A DNA stretch of 64,000 bases, from assembly GCA_041650855.1 (NCBI GenBank), contig JBAZKJ010000002.1, positions 69,076-133,075 of the forward strand, given 5' to 3'. Shown piece by piece: positions 54,231 through 55,916 of this stretch. Source of the DNA: Candidatus Margulisiibacteriota bacterium (GTDB lineage Bacteria; Margulisbacteria; WOR-1; O2-12-FULL-45-9; XYB2-FULL-48-7). The notes under the pieces were generated by a model. The model made no database searches. It was given only the letters and a program-made list of their open reading frames with translations, and was not told the DNA's origin. Within the stretch, counting starts at the first letter, position 1, and every line of letters starts with the position of its first letter. The translations under genes were made by a program, and so were the position numbers.

Positions 54231-54905
54231 ATGCAGGTACGTTCGGGAATAAAAATACGGGTGGGCAGACCTTTATCTTTGGTTCAGGGAAAACAAATCC
54301 GGGCGTTAAGTCTGGAGAACCGGCGTTTGCGCGGCCGGGTCGCGGCGCTGGAAAATAACAACGAGCGGCTGCTGGAGCAGGCTCTGCGCGACCCGTTGAC
54401 CGGCTTGCTTAATAAACGCGGTTTTACCGCCGGTTACGAACGGACCCTCTCGGCCGCCATCCGGCACGGCCGCAAGTTCACCCTGGCGATCCTCGACCTT
54501 GATTTCTTTAAAAAAGTTAACGATACGCACGGCCACGCGGCCGGCGATTTTGTCCTGCAAGAGGTTGCCCAAATAATGCAGAAGGCGCTCCGGTTGACCG
54601 ATACCGTCGCTCGTTGGGGGGGGGAAGAGATCGCCGTGCTCCTGGACGAGACCTCGTTCGCCCAGGCGACCGTACCGCTGGAGAGGATCAGGCAGCGGAT
54701 CGCCGAACACGCCTTCTCGTTCAAGGGGACGGCGATCAAGTTGACCGCCAGTATCGGCTATACCGCTTATGAACCGGACAAACTGCGCTTTCATATGGAC
54801 CAGGACGGCCATCAGGCGTTAAAAGAGACGCTTTTTGAGAAGGCGGACCTGGCCCTTTATTACGCCAAGAACGCCGGCCGCAACCAGATCAGCGGACAGG
54901 AATAG
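54231..54905 (+). CDS. Diguanylate cyclase (GGDEF) with N-terminal coiled coil
   Basis: DPLTGLLN, DLDFFKKVNDTHGH..GD, RLTD (RxxD), RWGGEEI, ADLALYYAK..GRN. Confidence 0.92.
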   Translation: MQVRSGIKIRVGRPLSLVQGKQIRALSLENRRLRGRVAALENNNERLLEQALRDPLTGLLNKRGFTAGYERTLSAAIRHGRKFTLAILDLDFFKKVNDTHGHAAGDFVLQEVAQIMQKALRLTDTVARWGGEEIAVLLDETSFAQATVPLERIRQRIAEHAFSFKGTAIKLTASIGYTAYEPDKLRFHMDQDGHQALKETLFEKADLALYYAKNAGRNQISGQE

Positions 54906-54923
54906 TCTTTTCTCCTTTTGTTG

Positions 54924-54932
54924 TGCTATAAT
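54924..54932 (+). promoter_or_regulatory. Extended -10 promoter of tRNA cluster
   Basis: TG-C-TATAAT, 11 nt upstream of tRNA-Gly. Confidence 0.6.
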
Positions 54933-54943
54933 TTTCTAATCGA

Positions 54944-55016
54944 GCGGGAGTAGCTCAGTTGGTAGAGCTTCTGCTTCCCAAGCAGAAGGTCGCGGGTTCG
55001 AACCCCGTCTCCCGCT
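54944..55016 (+). tRNA. tRNA-Gly (anticodon CCC)
   Basis: GCGGGAG/CTCCCGC acceptor stem, TCTGC-TT-CCC-AA-GCAGA anticodon arm, GGTTCGAAC T-loop; no CCA. Confidence 0.95.
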
Positions 55017-55027
55017 TTTTTTCTTGC

Positions 55028-55098
55028 GGCGGCATGGCCGAGTGGTTAGGCAGCGGTCTGCAAAACCGTTTACTCCAGTTCGAACCTGGATGCCGCCT
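55028..55098 (+). tRNA. tRNA-Cys (anticodon GCA)
   Basis: GGCGGCA/TGCCGCC acceptor stem, GCGGT-CT-GCA-AA-ACCGT anticodon arm, U73; no CCA. Confidence 0.95.
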
Positions 55099-55228
55099 TA
55101 TGTTACAATATACCGGATACCGGGAAGAATGCGCGCTTAGCTCAGCTGGTTAGAGTACTTGTCCCGATGGTCATTATAATAGATAATAATGGAATCATCG
55201 GGATCCCGATTCGATCAGCATCATCATT

Positions 55229-55302
55229 GCGCGCTTAGCTCAGCTGGTTAGAGTACTTGCTTGACAGGCAAGGGGTCACTGGTTCGATCCCAGTAGCGCG
55301 CA
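55229..55302 (+). tRNA. tRNA-Val (anticodon GAC), intact, nested in the insert of the outer copy
   Basis: GCGCGCT/AGCGCGC acceptor stem, CTTGC-TT-GAC-AG-GCAAG anticodon arm, GGTTCGATCC; no CCA. Confidence 0.93.
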
Positions 55303-55333
55303 ATGATGAGTTGGCCCCATCGGGACTTGACAG

Positions 55334-55358
55334 GTGCCTCGACTTCGCTCGGCACAGG
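55334..55358. repeat. Small hairpin element in outer tRNA-Val anticodon arm
   Basis: GTGCC-TCGACTTCGCTC-GGCAC; ACAGG is duplicated on both sides. Confidence 0.75.
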
Positions 55359-55403
55359 CAAGGGGTCACTGGTTCGATCCCAGTAGCGCGCATTCTTCTT
55401 TTT

Positions 55404-55916
55404 TTATGCCGCCAGGAATGCCAACAAATGCCTGATGATCGTGGTGGGAGAGGGAGGGCAGCCGGGGATATGCAGATCGACCTTGAGGACCTTATCGACC
55501 CCGCCCAGCGTGTAATACGAATCCTTGAATAATCCCCCGTTCAACGCGCAGTCGCCCACGGTGATGACAAATTTCTCCCCCGGCAGCGCTTCGTAAGTCT
55601 TCTGCAGAGCCAACAGCATGTTGCGGCTGACCGGGCCGGTCACCAGCAAGGCGTCGGCGTGCTTGGGCGAGGCGACAAAACTGACACCGAACCGCTGGAT
55701 GTCATAGATCGGGTTGGTGGTCGAGATGATCTCCGATTCGCAGGCGCCGCACGAGCCGGTGTCGACCTCGCGGATCTGGAACGACCCCTTGAACCGCCGG
55801 TCGATGACCCGCTTTAATTCTTTCCCCAAGGCTTCAACCTCGGCGGTCAGCTCCTGGCGCGGCAGATCGACGATCCCCTGGCGCAGACGGTTTTTGATCA
55901 TCTTTAACAGTGCCAT
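55404..55916 (-). CDS. Ehr/group-4 small Fe-S subunit (NuoB/HycG-like)
   Basis: DTGSCGACE, HADALLVTGPV, GDCA..GG, IPGCPP. Confidence 0.92.
   Translation of the reverse strand: MALLKMIKNRLRQGIVDLPRQELTAEVEALGKELKRVIDRRFKGSFQIREVDTGSCGACESEIISTTNPIYDIQRFGVSFVASPKHADALLVTGPVSRNMLLALQKTYEALPGEKFVITVGDCALNGGLFKDSYYTLGGVDKVLKVDLHIPGCPPSPTTIIRHLLAFLAA

Follow-up and report, generated by a model that had tools for sequence, protein, structure and literature searches.

A small double-hairpin DNA element with a tRNA-Val of its own splits a tRNA-Val gene of an uncultured Saganbacteria-type bacterium

A nested tRNA-Val gene

The window analysed here comprises 64,000 nucleotides (nt) of contig JBAZKJ010000002.1 (positions 69,076 to 133,075 of the forward strand) in the assembly GCA_041650855.1 of a Candidatus Margulisiibacteriota bacterium (genome 1.85 Mb, 95% complete), which belongs to the order Saganbacteria/WOR-1 within the Margulisiibacteriota. 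In this window, a tRNA-Val gene of this uncultured bacterium is split by a small double-hairpin DNA element which carries a complete tRNA-Val of its own. The resident (outer) tRNA-Val(GAC) gene spans positions 55131-55392 and is interrupted between the standard positions 30 and 31 by a 164-nt cassette (insert 1, 55162-55325), a doublet of two hairpin units, each closed by TCCCGA/TCGGGA, with the intact tRNA-Val as cargo in the second unit. We hypothesize that the resident gene was invaded by a small, non-autonomous DNA element of a dispersed hairpin family which brought along a whole tRNA-Val and spreads in a homing-like manner; we regard this explanation as probable, though with clear reservations. 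An origin by recombination or mobile DNA is supported by the data given below.

The outer copy consists of three pieces on the plus strand, each of them letter-for-letter identical to the inner tRNA-Val. The 5′ piece (55131-55161) comprises the 5′ strand of the acceptor stem, the D arm and the anticodon-stem sequence CTTG (positions 1-30). It is followed by hairpin unit 1 (55162-55203, plus strand; TCCCGATG...CATCGGGA), which has an AT-rich interior (CATTA...TAATGGAAT), and by hairpin unit 2 (55204-55325, plus strand; TCCCGAT...ATCGGGA), both recognized from sequence and folding. The closure of unit 2 pairs TCCCGAT at 55204-55210 with ATCGGGA at 55319-55325. Between the units lies the junction palindrome ATCGGGATCCCGAT (55197-55210, given without strand), the core of which, TCGGGATCCCGA, is the signature of the family in our census. 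Within unit 2, the 5′ inverted repeat TCATCATT (55221-55228) pairs with the 3′ inverted repeat AATGATGA (55302-55309), which begins at the discriminator A. The repeats enclose the inner tRNA-Val(GAC) (55229-55302, plus strand), which is intact and lacks an encoded CCA. It scores 65 bits with the Rfam model RF00005 (threshold 29), is called Val-GAC by ARAGORN and is the sole Val(GAC) gene called by this program in the entire genome.

Downstream of the cassette, the outer gene resumes with the piece CTTGACAG (55326-55333; positions 31-38 including the anticodon GAC). It is interrupted a second time between positions 38 and 39 by insert 2, an unrelated 24-nt mini-hairpin (55334-55357, plus strand; GTGCC TCGACTTCGCTC GGCAC AG) whose boundaries are ambiguous within a duplicated ACAGG that stands on either side. 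The 3′ piece (55358-55392) runs from GCAAG at position 39 to the discriminator A.

An uninterrupted allele

A 721-nt contig of run X2, an unrelated wastewater metagenome (2025 study), contains the same locus uninterrupted, without the cassette and without the mini-hairpin. It agrees with positions 54960-55161 without substitutions and with three small deletions in the spacer between tRNA-Cys and tRNA-Val; in the protein gene upstream, the X2 run differs by 1 base in 190. After the point corresponding to 55161, X2 reads CTTG and then continues with 55354-55400, which gives ...GAGTA-CTTGC-TTGACAG-GCAAG... and an intact anticodon arm, and the outer 5′ piece is continuous with the 3′ pieces. The uninterrupted locus indicates that a very close relative holds the empty site, and that the outer copy is the resident gene. 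Judged from these sequences, the cassette is an insertion.

The nested arrangement is also present in Logan contigs. A single unitig from a landfill run, probably the source of the assembly, bridges positions 55132-55257 and contains the outer 5′ piece, hairpin unit 1, the palindrome and the inner tRNA. Short-read metagenome-assembled genomes can mis-join at exact repeats such as the identical outer and inner copies, and the Logan contigs of the source run do break at the tRNA repeats. Still, that the nest is an assembly artefact, in which repeated tRNA sequence or strain variants were wrongly joined, has a next to negligible probability in view of the spanning unitig and of diverged homologous nests in independent assemblies of other genera. 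An earlier reading of the letters by a model without database searches (hereafter the sequence-only reading) had argued from the differing flanks and common design of the two copies that they are not a simple assembly duplicate, and the same two observations bear it out. Logan contigs list nothing over positions 55320-55345, from which we draw no conclusion.

Extended acceptor stems

The sequence-only reading had drawn attention to the extended acceptor stems of both tRNA-Val copies. The 5′ flank of the outer gene, GAAGAAT (55124-55130, plus strand; also present in the X2 allele), does pair over 7 base pairs (bp) with ATTCTTC (55392-55398), and the first pair is formed by T(-1) and the discriminator A. 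The inner flanks TCATCATT/AATGATGA pair over 8 bp, with the TCCCGAT/ATCGGGA closure beyond them. The neighbouring tRNA-Gly and tRNA-Cys were said to have no such extension, and 1 and 0 pairs were measured for them. Among the 52 ARAGORN tRNA calls scored, just the inner tRNA-Val and one tRNA-Met (C1:305204) have a flank extension of at least 7 bp.

Covariation was assessed in an alignment of 22 Val(GAC) genes from the class, each taken together with the 12 nt adjoining it at either end, for an 8-bp extension counted from T(-1):A73. Overall 63% of the cells are paired, and both sides change in 7 of the 8 extension pairs. The covariation score is 0.223 compared to 0.109 for shuffles, none of which (0 of 500) reaches it, and slid controls remain at or below 0.169. 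The sequence-only reading had named a lack of covariation in homologous loci as evidence against its interpretation; the leader-trailer helix does covary across the 22 genes. These data show that the extended stems are a real, selected and maintained feature.

The flank pair TCATCATT/AATGATGA recurs around the nested copy of a congener. Other nested copies in related genomes are flanked by CCATTATT/AATAATGG, TCATCAAT/ATTGATGA and TTTTATCCAT/ATGGATAAAA, and simple (uninvaded) Val genes by AAATGAAT/ATTCATTT, AAGAAT/ATTCTT and CCTTTAAT/ATTGAGGG. In the fetched loci, the mean extension amounts to 4.4 pairs for Val(GAC) versus 2.2-2.4 pairs for the adjacent Gly and Cys genes; further extensions of 7-9 bp are found there on Met, Leu, Pro and Phe tRNAs beside hairpin cassettes. 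The outer flanks of the present locus predate the invasion, because the uninterrupted wastewater allele matches them (with at most one difference on the 3′ side), and the outer extension is a property of the resident gene.

The tRNA-Met mentioned above (C1:305196-305288; an initiator by its 5′ end CGCGGGG) displays an 8-bp leader-trailer helix TAAAGTTA/TAACTTTA, which is set one or two nt off the acceptor stem. It lies between two protein genes, and no hairpin element was found near it.

A covarying helix is also what one would expect if the extended stems were primarily signals for RNA processing or termination, in which a leader-trailer duplex, as around rRNAs, guides RNase III or another nuclease and the element is incidental. 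The helix occurs on uninvaded simple Val genes of relatives, on the X2 allele and, away from any element, on the tRNA-Met at C1:305204, and RNase III is encoded in the genome. In addition, the outer 3′ arm leads straight into a T-run and could aid termination of the operon, and the tRNA cluster of the congener contains a gene for a 23S rRNA intervening sequence (IVS) protein between long inverted repeats, a classic setting of the RNase III type. However, acceptor stem and extension together reach only 14-15 bp, and a duplex of this length is short for bacterial RNase III. About one third of the cells and most other tRNAs also lack the pairing, so tRNA maturation does not depend on it as a rule, and extensions are enriched on cassette-adjacent tRNAs. 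We consider this alternative possible yet unlikely. One RNA run (X13) contains conserved tRNA parts and the simple Val gene of a relative in a different arrangement, and is uninformative on this locus.

If the resident gene was invaded by a cargo-bearing element, as we favour, the inner extension would form the base of the hairpin that encloses the cargo; as an inverted repeat maintained in the DNA, it would also appear in the transcript. The outer gene would have the same design in that leader-trailer repeats are common on Val(GAC) genes and on cassette-adjacent tRNAs in the order; resident genes with such flanks may descend from earlier cargo copies.

Alternative folds of the insert

A transcript of 290 nt across the locus has a predicted folding energy of -129 kcal/mol (z = -7.5 versus shuffles), and the observed pairings are beyond chance. 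The sequence-only reading had described a second fold, in which GTCCCGATGG (55161-55170) pairs with CCATCGGGAC (55317-55326) and the palindrome ATCGGGATCCCGAT at 55197-55210 is freed to pair with itself, and this pairing is indeed present. With the respective pairs enforced, the two-hairpin fold reaches -83.1 kcal/mol; the alternative, in which the outer 10 bp form and the palindrome in the centre pairs with itself, reaches -78.8 kcal/mol and is thus less favourable by about 4 kcal/mol.

Both adjacent units share the arms TCCCGA(YGG)/(CCR)TCGGGA. Two alternative folds exist because four alternating arm copies (a-a′-a-a′) can pair 1-2/3-4 or 1-4/2-3. The two folds are thus a property of the family and an unavoidable by-product of the arm layout, and nothing points to the processing switch that had been proposed. 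The sequence-only reading had further suggested that the long stems guide RNase III-like excision or recombination. The recombination part of this suggestion agrees with the empty-site allele and with the dispersed hairpin family, while nothing indicates excision by RNase III. Within doublets of the family, the AT-rich unit occurs in either orientation, which points to DNA and not to a strand-specific RNA signal.

Homologous nests in relatives

Homologous nests were found in seven related genomes. In another genus (L009), the outer Val gene is interrupted four times (10/11; 30/31, where the nested tRNA is located; 38/39; T-loop) and its exons are still perfect; hairpin unit 1 is approximately 95% identical there, which marks it as a conserved unit of the family. 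A member of another family of the order (L007) has an outer copy, a nested tRNA and a doublet in the T-loop, and inner and outer copy differ by compensated changes in acceptor and T-stem (GGGCGC/CAGAGG in the inner, GCGCGC/CACTGG in the outer copy). Two genomes (L019, L024) retain the 3′ pieces and have lost the 5′ half, one (L006) has 5′ relics only, the congener (L016) has lost positions 11-31 of the outer copy and has further inserts, and in another family of the class (L031), 3′ relics of several rounds are seen. All seven nests contain an intact inner copy. Decay of outer copies next to inner copies that are always intact indicates that the outer copies are dispensable. Arms homologous to the 3′ arm of unit 2 (GATGAGTTG..CATCGGGAC) are found in other genera as well.

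The mini-hairpin belongs to a family of its own, members of which occur with variant loops at the same 38/39 site in three relatives (L009, L016, L024). The single other look-alike in the present genome is located about 300 nt past the end of the window on the minus strand.

A third insert family (CCCGAG...CGAGGG), whose arms would pair CCC/GGG around tandem G-A mismatches, is found in outer tRNA-Val relics of relatives, where it fills the variable loop, T-loop and 3′ flank (L016, minus strand, 1640-1760; L009, 1740-1790; L024, 635-670; L031, 1640-1665). No clear copy of it was found within a tRNA in the present genome.

In the congener, the gene between tRNA-Gly and tRNA-Cys (L016:1908-2270, minus strand) encodes a 120-amino acid (aa) 23S rRNA IVS protein (PF05635, 103 bits) and lies between inverted repeats about 40 nt long in which ACAACTGACAAC is abundant. 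It is an IVS-type element located in a tRNA operon and not in 23S rRNA. A second pair of such repeats without an open reading frame (ORF) lies between Cys and Val, and similar repeats flank tRNAs in L012 and L027.

Distribution of the hairpin family

The 12-nt core TCGGGATCCCGA is present in 25 of the 31 genomes of the order, with at most 11 copies per genome, while a reversed control pattern gave 0 matches. The present genome has 2 true doublets, and relatives have 0-11 core palindromes each, mostly in tRNA sequence. Contexts were counted by reading printed contexts at one locus per genome inspected: approximately 16 of approximately 23 sampled hairpin-type occurrences lie inside tRNA genes or tRNA fragments. 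Recurrent sites of insertion are G10|C11 (TAG|CTCAG), 30|31 and the T-loop (GGTTC|GA; TTC|GA), and the host tRNA fragment typically adjoins an intact copy of its own tRNA. In 9 of 13 doublets, unit 2 is closer to the reverse complement of unit 1 than to unit 1 itself, so that the doublet is an inverted pair of palindromic units.

The second doublet of the genome (contig C4:21440-21557) follows the same theme. It is inserted at G10|C11 into a 19-nt 5′ fragment of tRNA-Thr(CGT). This fragment and its leader GCTTGG are a duplicate placed 25 nt ahead of the tRNA-Thr(CGT) that is intact.

A pattern scan across phyla (one genome per species) returned at least 120 loci in Omnitrophota, many lineages of the Candidate Phyla Radiation (CPR), Margulisiibacteriota, Planctomycetota and others. 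The loci listed include the complete genome of Candidatus Velamenicoccus archaeovorus (Omnitrophota) and are again often situated at TAG|CTCAG. Some family members lie outside tRNAs, for example after the 3′ end of 16S rRNA or between protein genes. The theme is repeated far away in phylogenetic terms, in a member of the Parcubacteria (L109, LBUF02000017; 1960-2204 and 5290-5530): at two places on one contig, 13 nt separate an intact tRNA-Val(GAC) from a second full-length tRNA-Val(GAC) behind it, which has diverged and contains a doublet at G10|C11.

Partial tRNA fragments beside an intact tRNA, and not around it, are the setting of many family members, and doublets without cargo are the rule. 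Both would also fit a local origin of the nest, by tandem or partial duplication of tRNA-Val and subsequent independent insertions of hairpins into a redundant copy, with the tRNA not being cargo; insertions could survive only in such redundant copies. In the present locus, however, TCCCGAT and ATCGGGA, the arms of the second hairpin, enclose the intact copy, and the same topology with homologous arms recurs in several genera. The empty site lacks everything at once, and a covarying inverted repeat around the inner tRNA is not predicted by local duplication. We therefore hold an origin of this kind to be rather improbable.

Splicing as an alternative

The inserts might instead represent a new bacterial tRNA intron: after transcription of the outer gene, the hairpin-bounded inserts would be cut out, the remaining pieces joined and the inner tRNA set free from the intron. 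The exons of the outer gene are flawless in this genome, and in L009 they are preserved across four inserts and share derived changes of the T-stem with the inner copy; exact removal of the inserts always restores a tRNA, and the boundaries are constant (G|TCCCGA...TCGGGA|C). As weak additional support, the AT-rich unit has the same orientation relative to the tRNA sense in most cases inspected. A direct count of this polarity was consistent in 4 of 5 cases, from which we make no claim, as the regular expression caught too few units.

Against splicing, there is no bulge-helix-bulge motif, and both junctions lie in a perfect helix of 7-10 bp (G|UCCCGA..UCGGGA|C). No match to a splicing endonuclease (PF01974) or to RtcB (PF01139), which could rejoin the outer halves, was found in the 95% complete genome; the controls were positive, and absence of these enzymes is likely, although not proven. 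A permissive Rfam scan of positions 54850-55500 (E <= 1) returned the three tRNAs only, and no intron, ribozyme or other known motif. Outer copies are shortened in several relatives while inner copies are always intact, and some family members lie outside tRNAs. Most family members are located in fragments from which no tRNA could be made: of 85 cross-phylum cases listed, only 4 gave an ARAGORN tRNA once the doublet had been excised. This figure is unusable as an intron test, since most hosts are fragments or multiply interrupted. Taken together, a new intron appears very improbable. The same low probability is given to the more specific idea that the inserts are protein-guided tRNA intervening sequences of Saganbacteria, Omnitrophota and CPR, which would be cut at the hairpin bases and rejoined with release of the nested tRNA in the same step.

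Three known types of insert were considered and rejected. An archaeal-type bulge-helix-bulge intron would have two 3-nt bulges around a 4-bp helix, which are missing, and no match to its enzymes was found. A group I intron or another catalogued self-splicing or self-cleaving RNA has no matching Rfam model here. An integrase-type island in a tRNA gene disagrees with a 164-nt insert without ORF and with duplication of the whole tRNA and not of one end.

GIY-YIG nucleases and possible mode of spread

In relatives, genes for GIY-YIG proteins of 80-88 aa are located directly beside doublets. These proteins match Pfam GIY-YIG only, and their nearest PDB entries are UPF0213 proteins. In L043, a 5′ fragment of tRNA-Pro with a doublet in the D-loop is followed by a GIY-YIG gene and an intact tRNA-Pro. 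In L198, the order is a 5′ fragment, a GIY-YIG gene, an intact tRNA-Pro and a 3′ fragment with a doublet in the T-loop, an arrangement that looks like a large version of the nest described here. Further co-locations of GIY-YIG genes and doublets are found in L056 and L209, and with three genes on one contig of another relative.

The present genome contains one small GIY-YIG gene (90 aa), the product of which is 33% identical to an element-linked one. The 164-nt cassette holds no ORF and no nuclease gene, while related cassettes in kin do carry one, and no match to a Y1 transposase (PF01797) was found in the 95% complete genome. Lack of an element-linked nuclease and of a Y1 transposase suggests that the two doublets of this genome are non-autonomous copies or relics.

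Based on this dataset, the following mechanism may be proposed. Full-length versions of the element in relatives would encode a single-domain GIY-YIG nuclease of 80-88 aa beside the doublet and the replacement tRNA. Spread would probably be homing-like: the nuclease may cleave the tRNA gene, possibly as single-stranded or hairpin DNA, and cleavage would be followed by repair or recombination from the filled allele, with the outer tRNA halves and flanks serving as homology. As the cassette supplies an entire tRNA, the function would not be lost. In the present genome, the split outer gene would be dead, and the cargo copy would now supply tRNA-Val(GAC), presumably matured by ordinary RNase P, 3′ processing and CCA addition.

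Several observations weigh against this proposal. The elements of this genome have no linked gene for a nuclease, transposase or recombinase, and there is no hairpin within 1.5 kb of its only small GIY-YIG gene. Among the top-scoring small GIY-YIG loci from 28 relatives, 26 are without a doublet; mobility is deduced from relatives only, and the link between nuclease and hairpin consists of a handful of co-locations and is not a statistic. A decayed nest in the congener at the same locus, together with the empty site in a closer relative, needs repeated invasion, allelic replacement or precise loss. The outer exons are 100% identical to the cargo, which needs a recent origin or gene conversion and also fits a gene under selection, and in L009 the outer exons share derived T-stem changes with the inner copy across four inserts. 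Finally, the leader-trailer pairing on the element-free tRNA-Met at C1:305204 leaves room for a reason at the RNA level.

If the proposal is correct, a selfish element breaks an essential single-copy tRNA gene and carries the replacement in its own hairpin loop, so that no splicing is needed. Saganbacteria, Omnitrophota and CPR have small genomes with many tRNA fragments, nested tRNAs and unusual stems of leader and trailer, features which confuse tRNA annotation and estimates of completeness and for which the proposal would account. It would also point to very small GIY-YIG nucleases that may recognize tRNA-gene or hairpin DNA, possibly single-stranded, and these could be of interest to tool developers, as the Ssn enzymes are. 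The present locus adds a naturally occurring allele with an empty site, evidence from covariation that the inverted repeat enclosing the cargo is maintained, and a copy without nuclease that is presumably non-autonomous.

Comparison with known elements

REP, BIME and REPIN sequences are imperfect palindromic units arranged in inverted doublets, in which hairpins of the unit and of the doublet are alternatives; most are non-autonomous, and they are associated with RAYT transposases. The elements described here likewise consist of palindromic units in inverted doublets (unit 2 resembles a reverse complement in 9 of 13). In contrast to REP and REPIN sequences, their copy number is very low, they occupy tRNA genes and not extragenic space, they carry cargo, and no Y1/RAYT gene was found in this genome. 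Rickettsia palindromic elements and other miniature inverted-repeat elements lie inside functional genes including RNA genes and are tolerated in the product. They have in common with the present case a small palindromic DNA within a functional gene; here, however, the product is presumably destroyed and replaced by the cargo copy.

Ssn proteins are GIY-YIG nucleases of approximately 94 aa whose cleavage sites in single-stranded DNA adjoin dispersed hairpin repeats (Chenal et al. 2025, PMC11893778). Similar to the NTS/SRM repeats of the Ssn system, with the NTS stem TTCCCGCG/CGCGGGAA (PMC11893778), the units described here are short GC-cored hairpin repeats (TCCCGAYG/CRTCGGGA). They are dispersed in the genome and across phyla, and in some relatives they occur beside a single-domain GIY-YIG gene of about 90 aa. 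Ssn repeats number in the hundreds, whereas here there are 2-11 copies per genome, arranged as doublets, targeted to tRNAs and able to carry a tRNA, and no nuclease gene is linked to the hairpins in the present genome. The SRM pattern HGTCWY..RNCYNB has no match at either doublet locus and is not enriched in the genome, with 11 matches genome-wide and 6 on the largest contig versus 11-13 in shuffles.

Phage T4 SegB is a free-standing GIY-YIG homing endonuclease whose gene lies in a tRNA cluster (PMC2330249). SegB resembles the present system in being a small GIY-YIG gene among tRNA genes, and its inheritance probably proceeds via cleavage and repair from the nuclease-bearing allele. Genes of the SegB type lie between intact genes and their products have DNA-binding extensions, whereas here the tRNA gene is split, doublets plug the pieces and a spare tRNA is present.

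For archaea, a model has been put forward in which a mobile element disrupts tRNA genes (Sugahara et al. 2012, PMC3293823). As with tRNA-integrating elements in general, the cassette lands in a tRNA gene, leaves fragments and brings a replacement, with filled and unfilled states in a natural population. Integrative elements, however, extend over kilobases, contain a gene for an integrase or recombinase and replace just one tRNA end, in contrast to a 164-nt cassette with a whole tRNA. In archaea, bulge-helix-bulge splicing rescues the disrupted tRNA genes, whereas a search for splicing enzymes in the present genome found none. No description of hairpin cassettes carrying a tRNA was found in the open-access full-text literature.

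Further features of the locus and the genome

The nest is the third gene of a Gly-Cys-Val cluster on the plus strand, which begins with tRNA-Gly(CCC) (54944-55016; Rfam 72.5 bits, also called by ARAGORN) and continues with tRNA-Cys(GCA) (55028-55098; Rfam 61.6 bits). At its 3′ end, the flank ATTCTTC at 55392-55398 is followed by the T-run up to 55405, the probable end of the tRNA transcript, although a simple terminator scan gave no call at this T-run. A convergent gene on the minus strand (55404-55916) faces the 3′ flank and the T-run.

A promoter scan indicated one weak promoter-like site in hairpin unit 1 (TTGTCC-17-GATAAT, 55159-55187). Its AT-rich interior contains the -10-like words TATAAT (55175-55180) and GATAAT (55182-55187) downstream of TTGTCC, and words similar to TATAAT also occur in hairpin units of relatives. 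One may speculate that the AT-rich unit acts as a portable promoter for the cargo tRNA.

Elsewhere in the genome, ARAGORN reports a tRNA with a four-base anticodon (tggc) and undetermined amino acid on contig C5 (39338-39414). The 2.5-kb contig C15 repeats the Gly-Arg-Leu-Lys tRNA cluster of C1:198950-199305 with slightly different spacers, which could be strain variation or a true duplication.

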